Shown: positions 7,657-64,000, counted from the first letter of the stretch. The stretch is DNA of 64,000 nucleotides from Verrucomicrobiota bacterium (GCA_041167675.1 JBEEIB010000008.1:2380-66379), one strand, 5' to 3'. A program made the numbers and translations. The notes: generated from the sequence alone by a model not told the origin.

Positions 7657-7689
7657 ATCGGCAAAGTACGCGACACGCATCAGGCAGCA

Positions 7690-7728
7690 AACCAGTAAGC
7701 AGTAAACCGCAACCACCAGTCAGCAGTA
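7690..7728. repeat. direct 15-mer repeat made of heptamer doublets, upstream of pgi
   Basis: AACCAGTAAGCAGTA (7690-7704) and CACCAGTCAGCAGTA (7714-7728) match at 13 of 15 positions. Each consists of two nCAGTAn heptamers. Confidence 0.5.
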
Positions 7729-7775
7729 GCTGTCCCGCGGCGCGCGGAGGACGCACGCCCTCCCAACCAGGACGG

Positions 7776-23149: not shown

Positions 23150-23352
23150 AGTATGGAAGCTATTCCCTGTTCTTTTGATTGCAAGGGACTTTAGCTAACT
23201 CACAATCTAGACGCGATGATGTTAATCGAAGAAAGCGACACCGCAGACGAAAATAAGACGAAAATCCGAGAAACAGGTGAACCGCAACGGGCTGATAGAA
23301 ACAGTGTTCTTCTCGTTGACACTTTTCCCAGGTTATTCCTTAAGTGATACCA

Positions 23353-24471
23353 ATGTGTAATGAGGCCATCTCATTTGCTCCCGGACGGGTCGAGCTACTT
23401 GGCAACCACACTGACTATAATCAGGGCCTCGTGTTATCTGCCGCTATCCATTTGGGCGTGACTGTTCGTGCCAGAAAAGACAGTTCCAACCTAATCACAG
23501 TAAGTTCCGCCACCAACGGACGGCGCGCCGAAATCGATATTTCAAGTATTGCACGGCTTCACACCGAGTCCTGGGCCAACTATCCACTAGGGGTCATTGA
23601 GACGTTGAGACAGACCGGTTTTCCACTGGGCGGAACTACAATTGATATCGATAGCGACCTGCCGTTAGGTGCTGGCCTTTCCAGTTCGGCCGCGTTGGAG
23701 GTTGCTACCGCATTTGCGCTCCGTGAGCTGTATCAACTTCCACTGGATCCGATGCAAATTGCTAAGCTCTGCCAACGGGCTGAAAACGAGTTCGTCGGCG
23801 TGCAGTGTGGACTTCTAGATCAGGCATCTTCGGTATTTGGTCAGGCGGGAAAAGCAATTCTCCTAGATTTCCGTTCCGTAACCGCCGAACCGATTGGGTT
23901 GCCTTCGGAGGTAGCCATTCTGTTGTTAGCTTCCGGAATTCCACATGCACTAACGGGCGGAGAGTACAACGAACGGCGCGAGCAATGCGCTAGAGCTGCA
24001 GCTCTGCTCGGTGTGACTGCACTACGCGAAACGACAACAGCGGCGGTCCAAGCGGCCAAAATGGACCCGGTGGTGCAACGACGCGCGCTCCATATCACGG
24101 GAGAAAACGAGCGGGTCAGTCGAGGAATTAAGGCGCTGCGCCGCGACGATCCGGAGACATTTGGTCAGTTGATGTTCGAATCGCATCGAAGCTCCCGGGA
24201 CAACTTTGAGAACAGCACGCCTGCCTTAGACTGTTTGGTAGAAATAGCCGAGCAGACGTCCGGTGTTTATGGCTCCAGATTAACCGGTGGCGGTTTTGGC
24301 GGATCGACAGTTTCACTGGTCAGTCGTGCGCAAGCCGACCAAATTAAAGAGTCGATGGTTGAGCAATATTTTGAGCGAATGGGCATACGCTCTTCGTCGA
24401 TGCTAACACTCCCATCCCAAGGAGCCGTTATTCTTGCCTCAAGCTCGGATGAGATGACAAATAGCAAATAG
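23353..24471 (+). CDS. galK: galactokinase
   Basis: GRVELLGNHTDYN (galactokinase signature) and GHMP motif PLGAGLSSSAA. ATG 23353 is preferred to the GTG at 23344. The last 5 codons and the stop lie in a heptamer array. Confidence 0.87.
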   Translation: MCNEAISFAPGRVELLGNHTDYNQGLVLSAAIHLGVTVRARKDSSNLITVSSATNGRRAEIDISSIARLHTESWANYPLGVIETLRQTGFPLGGTTIDIDSDLPLGAGLSSSAALEVATAFALRELYQLPLDPMQIAKLCQRAENEFVGVQCGLLDQASSVFGQAGKAILLDFRSVTAEPIGLPSEVAILLLASGIPHALTGGEYNERREQCARAAALLGVTALRETTTAAVQAAKMDPVVQRRALHITGENERVSRGIKALRRDDPETFGQLMFESHRSSRDNFENSTPALDCLVEIAEQTSGVYGSRLTGGGFGGSTVSLVSRAQADQIKESMVEQYFERMGIRSSSMLTLPSQGAVILASSSDEMTNSK

Positions 24472-24487
24472 CGGATAGCAAATTGGA
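24453..24487. repeat. heptamer array GATGACA AATAGCA AATAGCG GATAGCA AATTGGA
   Basis: Five 7-nt units that overlap the galK 3' end (MTNSK*). Confidence 0.75.
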
Positions 24488-24568: not shown

Positions 24569-25504
24569 ATGGAAAAGAGCGTCACTCCGCGGCTGGCCGA
24601 TATTCTTAAATCGTACGAAAATATCGGCGGCATCAACAATATTGATGGGTCCAATCTGCCCTCAAAACGGGCCGTAGCCCAAATCTGTGACGATCTTCTG
24701 CAAATCCTGTTTCCAGGGTACCACGATGAGGAACCCATTCATTCCGAGCAAGTAGCGCAAATTATTTCTGCTCGCGTTCTGAGCGTTGCCGATCGCATAC
24801 GGATCGAAGCATTTAAAAGCCTGAGAACTCGGGAGCCGCGATGCCCGGAGAAACAAGCCGAAGCCATCACACTTGATCTGATTCGATGCATTCCCAAGAT
24901 TCGTCTGCTTTTACGTACCGATGTAGAAGCGGCATATGAGGGCGATCCGGCAAGTAAGAGTTACGAGGAAATAATCGTTAGCTATCCCTGTGTCGAGGCG
25001 ATCGCCATTCAACGCATCGCACACGCCCTTTATTTAATGGAGCTGCCATTGCTCCCGCGGATTATGACCGAGTGGGCCCATAGCCGGACAGGGATCGATA
25101 TTCATCCGGGCGCCCAAATCGGTGACTATTTCTTTATCGATCACGGAACCGGTGTCGTCATCGGCGAAACCTGCGTTATCGGAGACCACGTAAAGCTCTA
25201 TCACGGGGTTACCCTGGGAGCGCGGAGCTTCCAAAAAGATGATGAGGGCCGAATTAAAAAGGGCGGCAAGCGACATCCAAATGTTGAGGATTGGGTTACG
25301 ATCTATCCAAATTCCACCATTCTGGGAGGAGAGACGACGATCGGAGCTCATACCACAATCGGAGCGAATGTGTTCTTAATGGAAAGCGTTCCGCCAAACT
25401 CTTTGGTCACGAACGAAAAATCGCAGGTCAAGATCGTCTCCAAACGAGATCTAACCGCACAGAGCAATGGAGCGGCGGAGCCGTTGCCGGAATATGAGAT
25501 CTGA
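24569..25504 (+). CDS. cysE: serine O-acetyltransferase (long form)
   Basis: Hexapeptide-repeat core DIHPGAQIGDYFFIDHGTGVVIGETCVIGDHVKLYHGVTLG with a SATase-type N-terminal helical region. Confidence 0.88.
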   Translation: MEKSVTPRLADILKSYENIGGINNIDGSNLPSKRAVAQICDDLLQILFPGYHDEEPIHSEQVAQIISARVLSVADRIRIEAFKSLRTREPRCPEKQAEAITLDLIRCIPKIRLLLRTDVEAAYEGDPASKSYEEIIVSYPCVEAIAIQRIAHALYLMELPLLPRIMTEWAHSRTGIDIHPGAQIGDYFFIDHGTGVVIGETCVIGDHVKLYHGVTLGARSFQKDDEGRIKKGGKRHPNVEDWVTIYPNSTILGGETTIGAHTTIGANVFLMESVPPNSLVTNEKSQVKIVSKRDLTAQSNGAAEPLPEYEI

Positions 25505-25779
25505 TCATTCTCGCCTTAGGCTCGAATGAAATCGCAAATCGCAAATCGCAGATAGCAAATTGGCCGACAGAGCTGTTCAGTGCGTTGGCCCTTTATCCGG
25601 CGCGAGGTATCGATCGAGTGGACCCTCACGAATCATTAGTCCCGGCCCGGTATCGTCGCGAACATCGGGCATCCGTGATCGGTGATAGCGCGCGGAAGCG
25701 CCAGATGGCGAACACAAAAGTCAATCTGCTATCTGCTATTTGCTATCTGTCATTTCATTCGAGCCTAAGGCGAGAATGA
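25505..25779. repeat. 275-bp inverted-repeat (MITE-like) element with heptamer sub-arrays
   Basis: 25505-25532 is the perfect reverse complement of 25752-25779 (28 nt). The arms extend to about 58 nt (24 of 30 further matches) through AATCGCA/GATAGCA arrays. The centre is 159 nt. Confidence 0.75.
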
Positions 25780-25784
25780 CGGCG

Positions 25785-26084
25785 TTAGTACAGCTGCTCC
25801 TCTTCGTGAAGTCCGGAGCCTTCCCGGATCGAGCGGAGGCGACGGCGCACCCCGAGCTTGGATCGAGGACCATTGATCAAGTCAACGACTACGCCGCCGA
25901 CGGCAGGAACAAAGGTGGCAACTGCGACAACCATCAGTCCGAGCGCGACCGTAGCTTGATTCTTTTTGTCTAGCCTACTGCCCAAGAGAATTCCGAATGC
26001 GCAAGCGATTGTTGCCTGAGAAACGCTTAAGAGAGTTGCCGAGGTGAGTGATAAAGTTAGAGTCTTACTGTGCTCGGTCGTCAT
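25785..26084 (-). CDS. small membrane protein (two predicted TM helices)
   Basis: 99 aa with two hydrophobic stretches (ATIACAFGILLG and LGLMVVAVATFVPAVGGVVV). No family recognised. Confidence 0.45.
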   Translation of the reverse strand: MTTEHSKTLTLSLTSATLLSVSQATIACAFGILLGSRLDKKNQATVALGLMVVAVATFVPAVGGVVVDLINGPRSKLGVRRRLRSIREGSGLHEEEQLY

Positions 26085-44874: not shown

Positions 44875-44930
44875 CGCATTCGAATATTCACCTTTCGCAT
44901 TCAGCATTCCGCAATCCGCATTTCGCCTGT
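44875..44930. repeat. heptamer array, CATTNCG subfamily
   Basis: CGCATTC GAATATT CACCTTT CGCATTC AGCATTC CGCAATC CGCATTT CGCCTGT. It overlaps the 3' end of the hydrolase gene, encoding AKCGLRNAECER*. Confidence 0.7.
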
Positions 44931-45742
44931 ATCCACTCTAGATAGTCCTTTAATACCGTGGCGCGAATCAAGTCGTTGTGCAGTTCGTGTCTCGCCTCCG
45001 GATAACTAATAAAAGTTTTGCTCGGCGCAAGCAGCTCTTCGAAATACGCTCGAGTTGCTTCGATCGAAGTTACTGAGTCTGCTTCGCCGTGGGTTAGCAA
45101 CACCGGCGCGTTTGCAGAAGGATGCGCCGTCAGCTGCCGGTTCGTTTTGATGATTTCAAGATAGGTGCGCACAGTGATGAAGCCGTGTCCCTTATCCAAG
45201 TCAGGAAAGCTGTTGAGAAGCGCTTGGTCGCGGCTATTATCGCCCGACTCTATCCCGGTTGGGAAACGCCATCCAGGCAACACCAGATTGAGCAGCCGAG
45301 CTGCTCCTTCCAACCAAATTGGCGGAGGACGCGAAAGGCCCAGCCAAGGCGAAGCAGCGATGTATCCGGCCGGCGCCCTTTTGCCAGATTGCGCGTACGC
45401 CAAAACAAGTTGGCCTCCGAGACTGTGACCAAAAAGAATGAGCGGTTCGGGCCGGCTCAGATGGGTAAACGCCGATTCAAGATCGTCCAAGTAATCCTGA
45501 TAACGTCTGATGGAAATCGGCCTCCCCTCGCTCGAGCCATGACCTCGCAAATCAAATGCGAACGCGGTGAAGCCAGCTCGAGCAAAAAAATCCCCGACGT
45601 GCATATAGCGCCCCGAGTGTTCACCCAACCCGTGGGCGATCACAATGGTTCCTTTGGATGGGCAATCTGGGATCCACCGACGAAAGAAAAGGTGTCGGCC
45701 AGGTTCGGTTTTGAAGGTCCCGGTAACTAAAGAGGGTTCCAT
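44888..45742 (-). CDS. alpha/beta hydrolase (lysophospholipase / monoacylglycerol lipase-like)
   Basis: HGLGEHSGRY and nucleophile elbow GHSLGG. 284 aa. Confidence 0.85.
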   Translation of the reverse strand: MEPSLVTGTFKTEPGRHLFFRRWIPDCPSKGTIVIAHGLGEHSGRYMHVGDFFARAGFTAFAFDLRGHGSSEGRPISIRRYQDYLDDLESAFTHLSRPEPLILFGHSLGGQLVLAYAQSGKRAPAGYIAASPWLGLSRPPPIWLEGAARLLNLVLPGWRFPTGIESGDNSRDQALLNSFPDLDKGHGFITVRTYLEIIKTNRQLTAHPSANAPVLLTHGEADSVTSIEATRAYFEELLAPSKTFISYPEARHELHNDLIRATVLKDYLEWIQAKCGLRNAECER

Positions 45743-59999: not shown

Positions 60000-60020
60000 C
60001 GCCTCCAATAACCGACAAAG

Positions 60021-60073
60021 AATGACAGATGACAAATGACAGATGGTACACCGCGTGACCTGTCATTTGTCAT
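60021..60073. repeat. opposed heptamer arrays forming a 14-bp perfect hairpin
   Basis: AATGACA GATGACA AATGACA GATGGTA (60021-60048) faces CCTGTCA TTTGTCA (60059-60072). 60029-60042 pairs perfectly with 60060-60073, with a 17-nt loop. Confidence 0.8.
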
Positions 60074-60118
60074 GTCGATATTGGCTATTAATCATTTGCT
60101 CGCTAGTTTCGACGCGCC

Positions 60119-61057
60119 ATGTGGCTTGCCTACTACGTTCATCACCTCAACCCTTTCCTTATTCGGTTTTATGATCAATTTGGAATCCGCTGGTACGGAG
60201 TGGCCTATCTCTGCGGATTTATCGCTGCTTTTTACTTGCTCAAGTGGCTGGCGCGAAAAGGCTACGGTTCGCTGACCGAAGGGCAGGTTGCCGACTTTAC
60301 TTTTTATGCCGCCCTATTCGGTGTTCTGCTTGGTGGCCGGCTTGGTTATGTACTTTTCTATCGGCCTGAGATGCTCACCGATCCCATCAGCATACTGCGA
60401 GTCGGCGATGGCGGAATGGCAAGTCACGGCGGCATCATCGGACTAATTATTTTTTCGTGGATCTACGCCCGACGACATAAAATTTCTTGGACGGGCATCG
60501 GGGACAATCTGGTGGCGGTTGCTCCGATCGGCCTTCTTTTTGGACGAATCGCCAACTTTATTAATGGCGAACTCTGGGGACACCCGACAAACGTGCCGTG
60601 GGCGGTGCAGTTCCCCAGCGAATTACTCGACTATCCCGATAAGGCACAGACTGCAATCGATCAGTGCTCGGCATTGAGCCCAAACCTCGACTCAGTCAAT
60701 ACAATTATCGAAGCCGCACGAACCAATCCCCAGGTTCGCGAAATCTTGTCTCATATTCTCACTCCACGCCATCCCAGCCAGCTCTACGAAGCCCTGCTTG
60801 AAGGGATCATACTTTTCGTCTGCCTGATCACCATTCGTCTCCGATTCCGTAAACCGGATGGACTCACGACCGGTTGCTTTTTTCTTCTCTATCCGATCAT
60901 GCGGATCATCGGAGAAACTTTCCGCGTACCGGATGCCCCGCTGACTGGGCCGTTCACTCGGGGTCAATTTCTTTCTCTGTTTATGTTCCTCATCGCGCTC
61001 GGCTTCTTTTGGCGGGTCTGGAAGACCTGGCCAAAAGGAATGACAAATGACAAATGA
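60119..61057 (+). CDS. lgt: prolipoprotein diacylglyceryl transferase
   Basis: 312 aa. Lgt motifs IRWYGVAYLCGF, GGRLGYVLFY, GGMASHGG and FGRIANFINGELWG. The last 5 codons and stop (MTNDK*) lie in a heptamer array. Confidence 0.93.
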   Translation: MWLAYYVHHLNPFLIRFYDQFGIRWYGVAYLCGFIAAFYLLKWLARKGYGSLTEGQVADFTFYAALFGVLLGGRLGYVLFYRPEMLTDPISILRVGDGGMASHGGIIGLIIFSWIYARRHKISWTGIGDNLVAVAPIGLLFGRIANFINGELWGHPTNVPWAVQFPSELLDYPDKAQTAIDQCSALSPNLDSVNTIIEAARTNPQVREILSHILTPRHPSQLYEALLEGIILFVCLITIRLRFRKPDGLTTGCFFLLYPIMRIIGETFRVPDAPLTGPFTRGQFLSLFMFLIALGFFWRVWKTWPKGMTNDK

Positions 61058-61063
61058 CAGATG
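61039..61063. repeat. heptamer array AATGACA x3 + GATG
   Basis: Three perfect AATGACA units at 61039-61059. TGA recurs in all three frames. Confidence 0.8.
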
Positions 61064-61099: not shown

Positions 61100-61498
61100 T
61101 TATTTCGAAGCTAATCTCAGGAACTGGTTTGCTCCGATTTTAACGATGATTTCGTGTTCCTGAGTTGAATGCCTGGCTTGATAAACCGAGATCTTGCCGG
61201 AGTCATCCACGCCAATTTTGAGAGCGTTGTATTCGGGGAGTGATGTCACCCCGCTCGGAACCGGATAATAAGCAGTGCCTTTCCATCGGACGACCTCCTT
61301 TGCTTGGTCCCGTTTGGCATCGAAACCCACGGCAATCGGATCTCCTACCGCGGTCGGTTGGGAGATCCGTTCCAGTTCATGCCGGCTTTGCCAATCCACT
61401 GCAACGGCCCAGGAAACACCGAGAAGGCATATTGAGAACGCCAACATCAGGCCATACGCCCATTTTCCCACCGGGAGGCTTTCGTCGACATCTCTCAT
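61100..61498 (-). CDS. membrane-anchored hypothetical protein
   Basis: ATG 61498 (MRDVDESLPVGKWAYGLMLAFSICLLGVSWAV) is preferred, because the track's TTG extension to 61534 translates a heptamer array. Confidence 0.45.
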   Translation of the reverse strand: MRDVDESLPVGKWAYGLMLAFSICLLGVSWAVAVDWQSRHELERISQPTAVGDPIAVGFDAKRDQAKEVVRWKGTAYYPVPSGVTSLPEYNALKIGVDDSGKISVYQARHSTQEHEIIVKIGANQFLRLASK

Positions 61499-61512
61499 CC
61501 GCTGGATACTGA

Positions 61513-61601
61513 GATAGCAAATAGCAAATAGCAAATATGCAGATAACCAAGGATGAATCGGGGAGCACTCTGCAGACGCTTACCCTATTTGTCATCTGTC
61601 A
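61513..61601. repeat. opposed heptamer arrays in the helicase/hypothetical intergenic gap
   Basis: GATAGCA AATAGCA AATAGCA AATATGC AGATAAC (61513-61547) faces TTTGTCA TCTGTCA (61588-61601). The arms are partially complementary. Confidence 0.7.
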
Positions 61602-64000
61602 TTCGCGGCCACATCCGTCCCAAATAGCGGCGGCCCATTTGGTTCGGTGCCAAAGCAGGCAGCGGTTGTCGAGCCGGGCTCTGCGTAGTCTGAACGTATA
61701 CCGACGCCAACTCCTGCAATTGGTTCCAGCGCTCCCATTCGTAATTGGGCGCCTGAACAATTTGACGCAACAGACTTCGCCACTCAGTCAGAGCTCTCTC
61801 GATGTCGCCGTGTCGAATGTTATTATTAACCAACTTGTGACGGCCGATCTGATGTTCGATCAAATCACGAACCACCTCCGAGGCACCCGAGCCATAGGCG
61901 ATGGGCAGGCCAAGTTCAAGGTAGCCCGAAAAATCGGCCCGTTGATACGTATTTTGGCAAATGGCAGCTAATCGGCCCCCGGCCCGGCTATCATCCATGG
62001 CGAATCGATGACCCGCGCGTAGGTCAGCCAAATCGAATACCAAATCACTAATCGAGTAATCAATCTCTTCTAACCCGGCAGCAACAGCTAAACCCTCTCC
62101 TTGATTGAAAAAACTGAAAATAATACCGCGACGAGTCGGAACGCCCCGGTCATCAACTAATCCGAGCTGACGCCAAGCGAATGCGGGCGAAACTGAGAGA
62201 TCGAGTGCCTCACATTCAGACCGGCAGACGCATTGCTGGCATACCAATGGATAACTTCGCCGCATTTCCGGGTCAGCCAAGTACCGTCCCTGAGCATCAA
62301 GATGGCCTCGGGCCAGGGCTCCGCCGAAACGGAATCGCCCATAAGCGGTATTTCTTCGAGTGACCAAATCGTGGAACTCGCCCTCCACTTCTTTTGCGAT
62401 GAGCGGAACCAAATCGTTTAGAAATTTTTCCTGCGCCAACCGACCGTTTACTGGGATCAGCGGATAATGCTCTCGCAACACCTTGCGGAACCACTTGGCG
62501 GCTAACCAACCTCTATCAGTGATGCTGGCAATCGGCAGCTCTCGGCCATACTCAAAATGTTTGTTATCCAAACGAATTTTACAAAGGTTCCCAAATCCGA
62601 ACGGCTGCAGCGTCGTGACCATGCTAAGCGCTGGCCGCCATCGCCCGTTTTCCCTTCTTATCCAAAGATTCCCGAGCGCAGTATCCGATAGCGGTGGAGA
62701 GATTTCCCACTCTCCCCGAGAGTTCAACATCTCGGCCTCATGTCGCCGGACCAGCCGCCCTCGCTCGGCATCCACCGGTAATCGACAAACCAGAACTCGA
62801 TCCTGCTCGGCCACAGCACCAGCTGCCGATTGCTCTATTCTCTCATAGAATTTTTCTACTCCGATCAACAGTGGCCGCGTCGAGAAGAGATGTGTTGCCA
62901 CCTTGGTCACGGCTCGAAACGGATCCTCTCCACGACCTGCCGCTTCCCGCATTACTGCAATCATCGAGGGCCAGTCGACCGGATCCGCCCGTCGAAGTTT
63001 ACTCGGAAATGCTTCATGGAGCCGGGGAATCTCTGGGGTGACAAGCGCATAACCAATCTCATCCAAACCACGCCTCCCCGCACGACCAAACATCTGCAGC
63101 AACTCATCCGCCCTTACCTGACGTTGAAAGTTGCCCGCTTGATAATGGGTGCCGGTCACCAGTACCGAGCGCATGGAAAAATTAATTCCGGCAGCCAGTC
63201 CCATGGTAGCAACCACTACTCGGAGCTGCCCTTTTTTAGCGAGCGGTTCAATGATTCCGGCCCGAACCGCGTAACTCAACCCGCTATGATGAAATGCTAC
63301 TCGAGATCGGAGCAATCGCCCAAGGGGTTCACCGGCTAAGACCGACTGTTCCTGAGTAAGAACCAACGGCTCTTCGGCGGGCAACGCAGAAGCGAGGGAA
63401 ATTGCCAGATCTTCAGCTCCGAGGCGCCTTGGAGCGAATACCAGGATCGGTCCCAGGTCCGCGATTAACGCGCGCGCGATCAGCTTCGGCCAATAGCCGC
63501 GAGCATTGGCCGGAGCGCGTGCCGGCAGCTCACTCAACATGACTTCTTCCAGCGGGACCGGCCTTTGCCGATGTTCCACTAATTCTACTCTTCGTCCGTT
63601 GCGCGCCAGCCAGTCCACAATGTCATGCGGATTAGCAACGCTGCCGCTCAGCAGAAGGAGTTGTGTTTCCGGCGGAGCCAGCGAAAGGATCAGCTCGTAA
63701 TTCGTTCCACGTACCGGGTCCGCCAACAGTTGATATTCATCAATTACCAACAATCTCGGACCTTCCCCGCGCAAAAACCGGGCTTTTTGGGTCTCGAGCG
63801 TCGCGACCACTACTTTGGCATCAAGATTTTCGGCCAAATCGCCAGTGGCGATGCCAACATCCCATCCACGTTGTCGCCACTCGGCTAATTTATCATTGGC
63901 CAGGGCACGGGTCGGCACGGTGTAGATCGCCTGTCCTTTCAGGGAATCATAGATCAGCTCAAAGATATAGGTCTTCCCCGACCCGGTCGGCGCCTGAACG
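61585..64000 (-). CDS. Ski2/HelY-like DEAD/DEAH-box helicase with long uncharacterised C-terminal region (5' end outside window)
   Basis: The reading frame continues past the track M to the window edge (…APTGSGKTYIFELIYDSLKGQAIYTVPTRALANDK). Walker B-type VIDEYQ, SGS, and FHHSGL...MGLAAGINF motifs. About 450 aa of unassigned C-terminus. Confidence 0.88.
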   Translation of the reverse strand, partial: VQAPTGSGKTYIFELIYDSLKGQAIYTVPTRALANDKLAEWRQRGWDVGIATGDLAENLDAKVVVATLETQKARFLRGEGPRLLVIDEYQLLADPVRGTNYELILSLAPPETQLLLLSGSVANPHDIVDWLARNGRRVELVEHRQRPVPLEEVMLSELPARAPANARGYWPKLIARALIADLGPILVFAPRRLGAEDLAISLASALPAEEPLVLTQEQSVLAGEPLGRLLRSRVAFHHSGLSYAVRAGIIEPLAKKGQLRVVVATMGLAAGINFSMRSVLVTGTHYQAGNFQRQVRADELLQMFGRAGRRGLDEIGYALVTPEIPRLHEAFPSKLRRADPVDWPSMIAVMREAAGRGEDPFRAVTKVATHLFSTRPLLIGVEKFYERIEQSAAGAVAEQDRVLVCRLPVDAERGRLVRRHEAEMLNSRGEWEISPPLSDTALGNLWIRRENGRWRPALSMVTTLQPFGFGNLCKIRLDNKHFEYGRELPIASITDRGWLAAKWFRKVLREHYPLIPVNGRLAQEKFLNDLVPLIAKEVEGEFHDLVTRRNTAYGRFRFGGALARGHLDAQGRYLADPEMRRSYPLVCQQCVCRSECEALDLSVSPAFAWRQLGLVDDRGVPTRRGIIFSFFNQGEGLAVAAGLEEIDYSISDLVFDLADLRAGHRFAMDDSRAGGRLAAICQNTYQRADFSGYLELGLPIAYGSGASEVVRDLIEHQIGRHKLVNNNIRHGDIERALTEWRSLLRQIVQAPNYEWERWNQLQELASVYVQTTQSPARQPLPALAPNQMGRRYLGRMWPRMTDDK

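Follow-up and report, generated by a model that had tools for sequence, protein, structure and literature searches.

The heptanucleotide repeat arrays in which galK and two further genes end, within a stretch of 64,000 nucleotides from a soil-dwelling Verrucomicrobiota bacterium (GCA_041167675.1, JBEEIB010000008.1:2380-66379; the whole stretch is termed the window), are probably the purine-rich arms of boundary-hugging tandem-heptamer elements, the stop codons within them being a by-product of composition rather than a dedicated device. The genes and repeats concerned are located as follows.

23344..24471, plus strand: galK (galactokinase), with the Pfam domains GalKase_gal_bdg, GHMP_kinases_N and GHMP_kinases_C
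24427..24453, plus strand: degenerate copy of a "head" hairpin resembling repetitive extragenic palindromic (REP) units (consensus TCATTCTCGCCTTAGGCTCGAATGA), inside the galK 3' end and directly before the array
24454..24484, plus strand: array ATGACAA ATAGCAA ATAGCGG ATAGCAA ATT, which encodes MTNSK and carries the galK TAG
60119..61057, plus strand: lgt (prolipoprotein diacylglyceryl transferase), Pfam LGT, with the protein end ...PKGMTNDK
61038..61063, plus strand: (AATGACA)3.6 array at the lgt end, which carries the lgt stop
61585..63918, minus strand: DEAD/DEAH-type helicase, Pfam DEAD and Helicase_C, whose frame leaves the window end
61585..61605, minus strand: short array CGAATGACAGATGACAAATAG, which encodes RMTDDK and the helicase stop

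The coordinates and peptides that the original prediction had given for these three ends were found to be correct when the sequence was read again. The galactokinase ends in ...SSSDEMTNSK with the stop TAG at 24469-24471 inside the heptamer array, and a comparison with orthologous C-termini marks the final ~14 codons (VILASSSDEMTNSK) as repeat-derived. The helicase ends in ...PRMTDDK, its stop lying at 61585-61587 of the minus strand in CGAATGACAGATGACAAATAG, while in the lgt array the TGAs of the first and second units are out of frame and the third (61055-61057) is the stop of the gene. Stops in every frame within 21 nt on one strand and none on the other, which had likewise been predicted, are seen at all three places: the AATGACA/AATAGCA arrays of galK, lgt and the helicase stop all three frames within ~21 nt, and the complementary units TGTCATT and TGCTATT contain zero stops.

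How these ends arose was approached through orthologues. Four genes, namely the three above and an alpha/beta hydrolase that is described below, were fetched from 30 related genomes, and their C-termini were anchored by tblastn. Outside the genus, the GalK orthologues (15/15) end 0-5 residues past the conserved ...PSxGA(R)xL motif, for instance with GARLV, GARIIE or GARLLHG before the stop, and an MTNxK tail is present in 0/15 of them. Inside the genus, five genomes have repeat DNA at the same galK, lgt and helicase ends, and throughout the orthologue set the tails were found only where repeat DNA is present. The five GalK tails read GAVILASSSDEMTNSK, GAVILARGSNEMTDDK, GAGIVASSSKEMTNSK, GAHVIKGDSK and GAVIQSFSPGARMK, and the DNA beneath the last ~14 galK codons is, in this genus, a copy of the REP-like head followed by an array, the head copies of the same-genus orthologues being near-perfect. 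In genome G004 the head DNA of galK is read in another frame (VIQSFSPGARMK vs VILARGSNEMTDDK) up to a stop at the first TGA of its array, which indicates that the DNA element is conserved and not the peptide. Genome G011 keeps the synteny of galK with a downstream MEKSV... gene, the native TGA being followed by a short repeat-free spacer. In genome G002 (L005), the galK stop is followed by a long (GGCGTTT)n array with over 14 units, where the window genome has only a short AATAGCA array.

The other genes add to this picture. The Lgt tails inside the genus are MTNDK (in two genomes), MTDDKS, KENDKLKMTNDR and MTDDR, and unrelated basic tails are found elsewhere. In the lgt gene of G001 (L024), the in-frame TGA is changed to TTG, and the open reading frame (ORF) runs on for 21 nt, exactly 7 codons, before another repeat stop comes into frame, yielding KENDKLKMTNDR; the case shows the 7-by-3 periodicity at work in nature. 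In G004 and G001, a TGTCATT partner lies downstream of the lgt array at a distance of ~100 nt. Helicase tails across the genus are MTDDK, MTNDR, IADSR and GNGR (the last followed by TAG and AGATAGC units), G002 has an early TAA stop ahead of the arrays, and the helicase of other genera ends in ...QMKRYQxR and a few residues. Inside the genus the DNA repeat persists, and it is the encoded peptide that drifts, in some cases together with its frame; at the orthologous galK site, to judge from the compared sequences, arrays change rapidly in both unit and length. Because tails and repeats are absent outside the genus and the DNA is kept within it, the arrays are considered to have overwritten native 3' ends, so that the check on orthologues favours the first of two possibilities raised by the original prediction. 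The element has probably displaced the native stop, rather than the gene having extended into the element.

The arrays were then surveyed across the assembly, a fragmented metagenome-assembled genome of 6.96 Mb in 681 contigs with 53.9% G+C and 7% contamination. Tandem Repeats Finder (TRF) at a score of 30 gave 600 rows of period 7, 98 of period 6 and 283 of period 8, and the period-7 arrays were merged into 578; exact tandem runs numbered 127, 66 and 32 for periods 7, 6 and 8, respectively. About 180 different heptamer units occur, the commonest being AAATAGC (68), AATGCGG (45), AAATGAC (32) and AGATAGC (27). Measured against 5810 genes (76% coding) from a simple dicodon gene caller of our own, 383 of the 578 arrays are intergenic, 73 contain a called stop, 20 contain a start and ~100 lie inside ORFs. 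Since the arrays make up 0.21% of the genome, ~12 stops would be expected in them by chance, and the observed 73 is a lower bound because TRF misses short arrays such as that of the helicase. A periodicity test independent of TRF detected 36 stop codons embedded in period-7 repeats and 0-1 for each of the periods 5, 6, 8, 9 and 10. Within -20 to +10 nt, stops account for 116/452 array edges and starts for 34/356, and array density peaks in convergent spacers.

The 73 tails form recurring repeat-encoded families, including (M/I)TN(D/S)K, IA(D/N)SR, AVSG, VISNQ, E(F/S)RI and others, with a broad spread of 0 to 8 repeat-encoded codons ahead of the stop. A preferred stop phase (first, second or third unit) was sought among these tails and none was seen, nor any sign of a selected tail length; the MTNxK frame that is common to the three genes of the window is not significant. 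Three frames are closed on one strand and none on the other in 133/578 arrays, and in 242/578 the unit has no stop on either strand. The units AATAGCA, AATGACA, AGATAGC and AATGCGG hold at most two adjacent G, short of the run of 3-4 G by which a G-quadruplex is recognized. The trimer (AATAGCA)3 is abundant in each of the five genomes of the genus and also in one further genus of the same family, whereas the remaining families of the order lack it among the relatives searched.

The original prediction had also placed each array in the stop-bearing orientation relative to the gene that it terminates, which is indeed seen, but the statement is partly tautological, and the bearing of stops on orientation is better judged from units that lack them. 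In the ratios that follow, arrays with the purine-rich strand in sense are counted against those with it in antisense. In the 0-40 nt past an intact stop, stop-bearing units stand at 62:17 and stop-free ones at 49:16 (Fisher p=0.69), in the 0-10 nt past it at 29:2 and 33:3, and in the 11-40 nt before a start at 5:36 and 3:15. Near 3' ends, AAATAGC, AAATGAC and AGATAGC stand at 23:6, 10:2 and 14:1, and near 5' starts at 1:20, 0:6 and 1:6; the stop-free AATGCGG and AAGCCAG stand at 19:2 and 8:1 near 3' ends, and the arrays that overlap ORF ends at 74:3. Orientation is therefore non-random genome-wide, as had been supposed, but the equal bias of the stop-free units means that it has a cause other than stops.

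The stop content of the units points in the same direction. Stop codons consist of a T and then purines, so purine-rich units with one T often hold one. When the letters of each unit were permuted for the expected stop content, 70.6 of the 178 distinct units were expected to have a stop-bearing purine strand and 59 were observed. Hidden read-through arrays in the pyrimidine-sense orientation were sought in the last 150 nt of ORFs, where few were found (purine:pyrimidine 18:6). That a stop-free array can nevertheless end up in a protein is illustrated by the hydrolase.

44888-45742, minus strand: alpha/beta hydrolase, Pfam Hydrolase_4, with the protein end QAKCGLRNAECER
44886..44926, minus strand: stop-free array of the AATGCGG/ATTGCGG type, which encodes the tail KCGLRNAECER of the hydrolase

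The whole array is read through in this ORF and the stop lies in its degenerate flank. The hydrolase tail is thus repeat-encoded, as had been claimed, but since the unit holds no stop the array is a translated one and not a stop cassette. Among the orthologues, KCGLRNAECER is limited to three genomes of the genus.

A cause of the strand rule that is independent of stops is offered by the architecture of the elements. The arrays often occur as inverted pairs, with complementary units at both ends of a spacer, whatever the orientation of the flanking genes. A partner within 400 nt is inverted for 136 of the 578 arrays and direct for 15, the median spacer is 94 nt, and the left arm is purine-rich in 67/69 pairs (binomial p=8e-18). 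An inverted pair is identical on both strands, and its purine-rich strand would therefore be in sense next to stops and its pyrimidine-rich strand next to starts. Examples from the window are the following.

60022..60074: tight inverted pair (AATGACAG)n / TGACCTGTCATTTGTCAT, between lgt and a divergent small gene
25505..25779: full-length element composed of a head, a purine-rich array, a pyrimidine-rich array and an inverted head, filling a convergent intergenic region

Folding of the RNA gave z=-4.0 for the pair upstream of lgt (60010-60085) and -137.5 kcal/mol with z=-9.0 for the full-length element (25500-25785), and it gave no hairpin at the galK array (z=+1.5), the lgt array (z=+0.9) or the helicase spacer (z=-0.1). 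The possibility that stop-holding arrays form a special, hairpin-paired class was considered and rejected, pairing being equally frequent in them (16/73) and in other arrays (120/505).

The REP-like head, a 25-nt hairpin, has ~55 copies in the genome, 23 of which stand directly before arrays; the window copies are located at 24427-24453, 25505-25529 and 25755-25779. In some head variants the two sides of the inner stem are altered in concert (GCC-TTA-GGC to GTC-TGA-GAC), and such paired changes, on the strength of the sequences, suggest a conserved structure. A further tie concerns PF05635, the family of the 23S rRNA intervening sequence (IVS) protein, a four-helix bundle. Nine genes of the genome score above the Pfam cut-off for this family, and at least seven of the nine are bracketed by a purine-rich and a pyrimidine-rich array of period 7, 8 or 10.

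C95:16122-16421, C524:33619-33936, C47:34910-35203, C261:178-492, C74:299-589 and others: PF05635-type genes bracketed by arrays

The bracketing arrays include units of period 8 (GGCGTGTC) and period 10 (CGAACGTCAA), so the bracketing architecture is not limited to heptamers. A Pfam search of the ORFs adjoining the loci cited from the window was without match, and none of them is PF05635.

On the reading that is preferred here, a family of elements is spread genome-wide, lying flush to gene boundaries and typically built as 5'-purine-rich array, spacer and pyrimidine-rich array-3'. A gene running into such an element would meet the purine-rich arm in sense, and a gene leaving it would have the pyrimidine-rich arm upstream. 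As the unit length of 7 is no multiple of 3, any unit with TAG, TGA or TAA closes every frame within 21 nt. Where the element has come to cover the final codons of a gene, its ORF would enter the arm and terminate at the first in-frame repeat stop after no more than ~6 repeat-encoded codons, as may have happened at galK, lgt and the helicase in the genus and at no fewer than 73 genes of the window genome. MTNDK, MTNSK and MTDDK are one frame of AATGACA/AATAGCA. The repeat stops would make encroachment on a 3' end nearly harmless, without being the cause of the existence or orientation of the arrays. The galK, lgt and helicase arrays probably belong to the paired family, as judged from unit identity, polarity and paired orthologous copies. 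By analogy with the 23S rRNA IVS, paired arms may be transcribed into double-stranded stems and might serve as RNase III substrates.

Other explanations were weighed against the same counts. It is very unlikely that the arrays are selected stop cassettes, kept at gene ends to terminate translation in every frame after a frameshift or read-through and possibly combined with a hairpin. Such a device would account for the closure of three frames at the galK, lgt and helicase arrays, for the 73 genes ending in arrays and for the more frequent overlap of stop-bearing arrays with ORF ends (54/83 of the arrays at or over a stop, vs 20/53 of the stop-free ones; p=0.0026), but it is contradicted by the identical orientation bias of stop-free units, by the 242 arrays that are stopless on both strands, by the lack of enrichment of stop units over composition, by the presence of the same arrays upstream of starts in the opposite orientation, and by stop-free arrays translated as tails as in the hydrolase. 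The second possibility of the original prediction, that the arrays are retained as combined translation-stop and hairpin modules, accordingly did not withstand the stop-free control (p=0.69), the composition-level stops and the absence of a hairpin at the galK, lgt and helicase arrays. A pure selection filter, in which arrays would arise or insert in either orientation and only those in the stop-bearing sense would survive at 3' ends as the sole source of the bias, is improbable. The 74:3 ratio in the overlap class and the overlap excess of stop-bearing arrays speak for it, yet the bias is equal just past an intact stop (29:2 and 33:3 at 0-10 nt), where translation cannot matter, it extends to stop-free units, it recurs in mirror image ahead of start codons, and the 67:2 polarity of the pairs is independent of gene context.

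That the (M/I)T(N/D)(D/S)(K/R) tails have a function as peptides, for instance as a tag for degradation or sorting that unrelated proteins gained convergently, can hardly be believed, even though similar tails end at least seven genes of the window genome and many phyla have ORFs with ...ANSK-like tails. Each tail corresponds exactly to the DNA unit and to the frame in which it is read; the tails are not seen outside the genus, and from one close orthologue to another their frame or unit differs. They are borne alike by a kinase of the cytoplasm, an enzyme integral to the membrane and a helicase, and other frames and units yield other recurrent tails (AVSG, IADSR, EFRI, VISNQ). A broader proposal, for which we see a small chance, is that inverted heptamer arrays are a general punctuation of gene boundaries derived from IVS-like cassettes, forming register-tolerant stems at which RNase III cuts would set mRNA ends at stops and starts. 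If so, the purine-first polarity and the rule common with Xanthomonas and Nostoc would reflect an RNA function and not G-quadruplexes, and stop-containing units would spread best through their harmless overlap of ORF ends.

Several points weigh against regarding the arrays as purine-rich arms with by-product stops. The statistics all rest on a crude gene caller and on the fragmented and contaminated assembly. Counted by array, stop-bearing purine strands number 304 vs 276 expected, although array counts are non-independent. In the window genome, the arrays of galK, lgt and the helicase each stand as a solo arm, that of galK being without a partner. The overlap excess of stop-bearing arrays (p=0.0026) is also to be counted here; it is read as a permissive filter, since an arm with its own stop costs a few residues, whereas one without a stop lengthens the protein by the entire arm and beyond.

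Short intergenic repeats downstream of genes, transcribed, hairpin-forming and proposed to stabilize mRNA 3' ends, are represented by the cyanobacterial short tandemly repeated repetitive (STRR) heptamers and by the enterobacterial REP units and bacterial interspersed mosaic elements (BIME), REP units being single imperfect palindromes and not tandem heptamers. The kind of heptamer array described here is already known, its placement rule from Xanthomonas and Nostoc and its three-frame stops from Beggiatoaceae. Abundant and mostly intergenic period-7 arrays, some of them in inverted pairs, were described for GGGAATC in Xanthomonas and GGGGAYT in Nostoc/Anabaena (Rehm et al. 2015, PMC4692102), and the same rule of strand and distance, overlap with stop codons included, was reported there for these stop-free units. 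The positional and strand rule found here is identical. However, the Xanthomonas and Nostoc units are G-rich, form G-quadruplexes and hold no stop triplet, whereas the commonest units AATAGCA, AATGACA and AGATAGC are A-rich, cannot form a G-quadruplex and contain TAG or TGA; moreover, ~180 units are found instead of one, and the lineage is Verrucomicrobiota.

A second precedent is provided by the TAACTGA repeats of marine Beggiatoaceae and some cyanobacteria, which have stops in three frames one way and none the other way (MacGregor 2015, PMC4679880). Their occurrence at ORF ends, where 13-14 sets overlap an upstream stop, was described as a necessary consequence of the sequence (PMC4679880), and, according to a work cited in the same paper, the long simple-sequence repeats of most prokaryotic genomes are most often heptanucleotides. 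The three-frame stops in one orientation and their absence from the other are shared with the arrays studied here. The TAACTGA repeats, a single unit, nevertheless lie mostly toward a downstream start, often 1 nt upstream of it, and almost never form inverted pairs, whereas the present arrays crowd stops, form inverted pairs and comprise many units. In the 23S rRNA IVS of Coxiella burnetii, a PF05635 (S23p / four-helix-bundle) ORF is enclosed by a long stem of terminal inverted repeats, the 5' arm of which carries tandem GACAGAT heptamers of variable copy number at a mapped RNase III site (PMC4990558). When rotated, GACAGAT gives the ATGACAG unit that is found at 60022-60045. Unlike the Coxiella IVS, the elements described here lie between protein-coding genes and not in 23S rRNA, and most have no spacer ORF.

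Exact matches of (AATAGCA)3 were also scanned across taxa, the spread being a sample and not a census. The matches listed are scattered sporadically over many phyla, and Phycisphaerales, Bacteroidota, Vibrionaceae, Lysobacter, Patescibacteria and cyanobacteria are represented among them, by metagenome-assembled genomes and isolates alike. Of the 118 loci sampled, there are 27 at which a frame that is open for 100 codons or more enters the repeat and stops in it with tails like ...IANSK, and complementary partners of these 27 were located downstream in 10 cases and upstream in 2. Several genomes have multiple matches, which suggests independent or horizontally spread heptamer families.

The stop-cassette idea adds little beyond the published remark on TAACTGA. 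What is added here is the stop-free control, the rule for units incapable of forming G-quadruplexes and a warning for annotation, and its value is modest. The placement and strand rule of G-rich heptamers extends to A-rich units in a Verrucomicrobium, and the fact that it holds without a G-quadruplex argues that it belongs to heptamer arrays or to the inverted-pair architecture generally, not to quadruplexes. The link to IVS-type cassettes provides a testable lead, through RNase III stems, to the function of this repeat class. For annotation, ~1% or more of the genes in this lineage have C-termini written by intergenic repeats, and tails such as MTNDK and IANSK are not to be taken as motifs. 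Slippage by 7 nt at the extreme 3' end could alter only the final few residues.

The warning extends to 5' ends, where longest-ORF starts inside pyrimidine-rich arms are likely spurious. Two loci of the window serve as examples.

61512..61537, plus strand: (ATAGCAA)3.4 array, reading TTGCTAT on the minus strand, just upstream of the gene at 61100-61500
7681..7735, minus strand: run of pyrimidine-rich quasi-heptamers, immediately before the pgi ATG (7680)

At the former, the longest-ORF start of the 61100-61534 ORF is a TTG at 61534 inside the TTGCTAT array; at the latter, the run leaves the pgi frame open back to a GTG at 7716, and the gene caller favours the start at 7680. The spurious N-terminal extensions proposed for such ORFs are thus plausible, both starts lying in pyrimidine-rich arrays with ATGs just downstream. 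A Pfam search with the 61100-61534 ORF (minus strand, 144 aa) was without match; the likelier start is an ATG (MRDVDESLPVGKW...) ~35 nt downstream of the listed TTG, and the predicted product resembles a small membrane protein. Other over-represented tandem families in the genome have units of period 8 (ACACGCCG, ACGCCGAT) and period 10 (AACGTCAGCG, AACGAACGTC).

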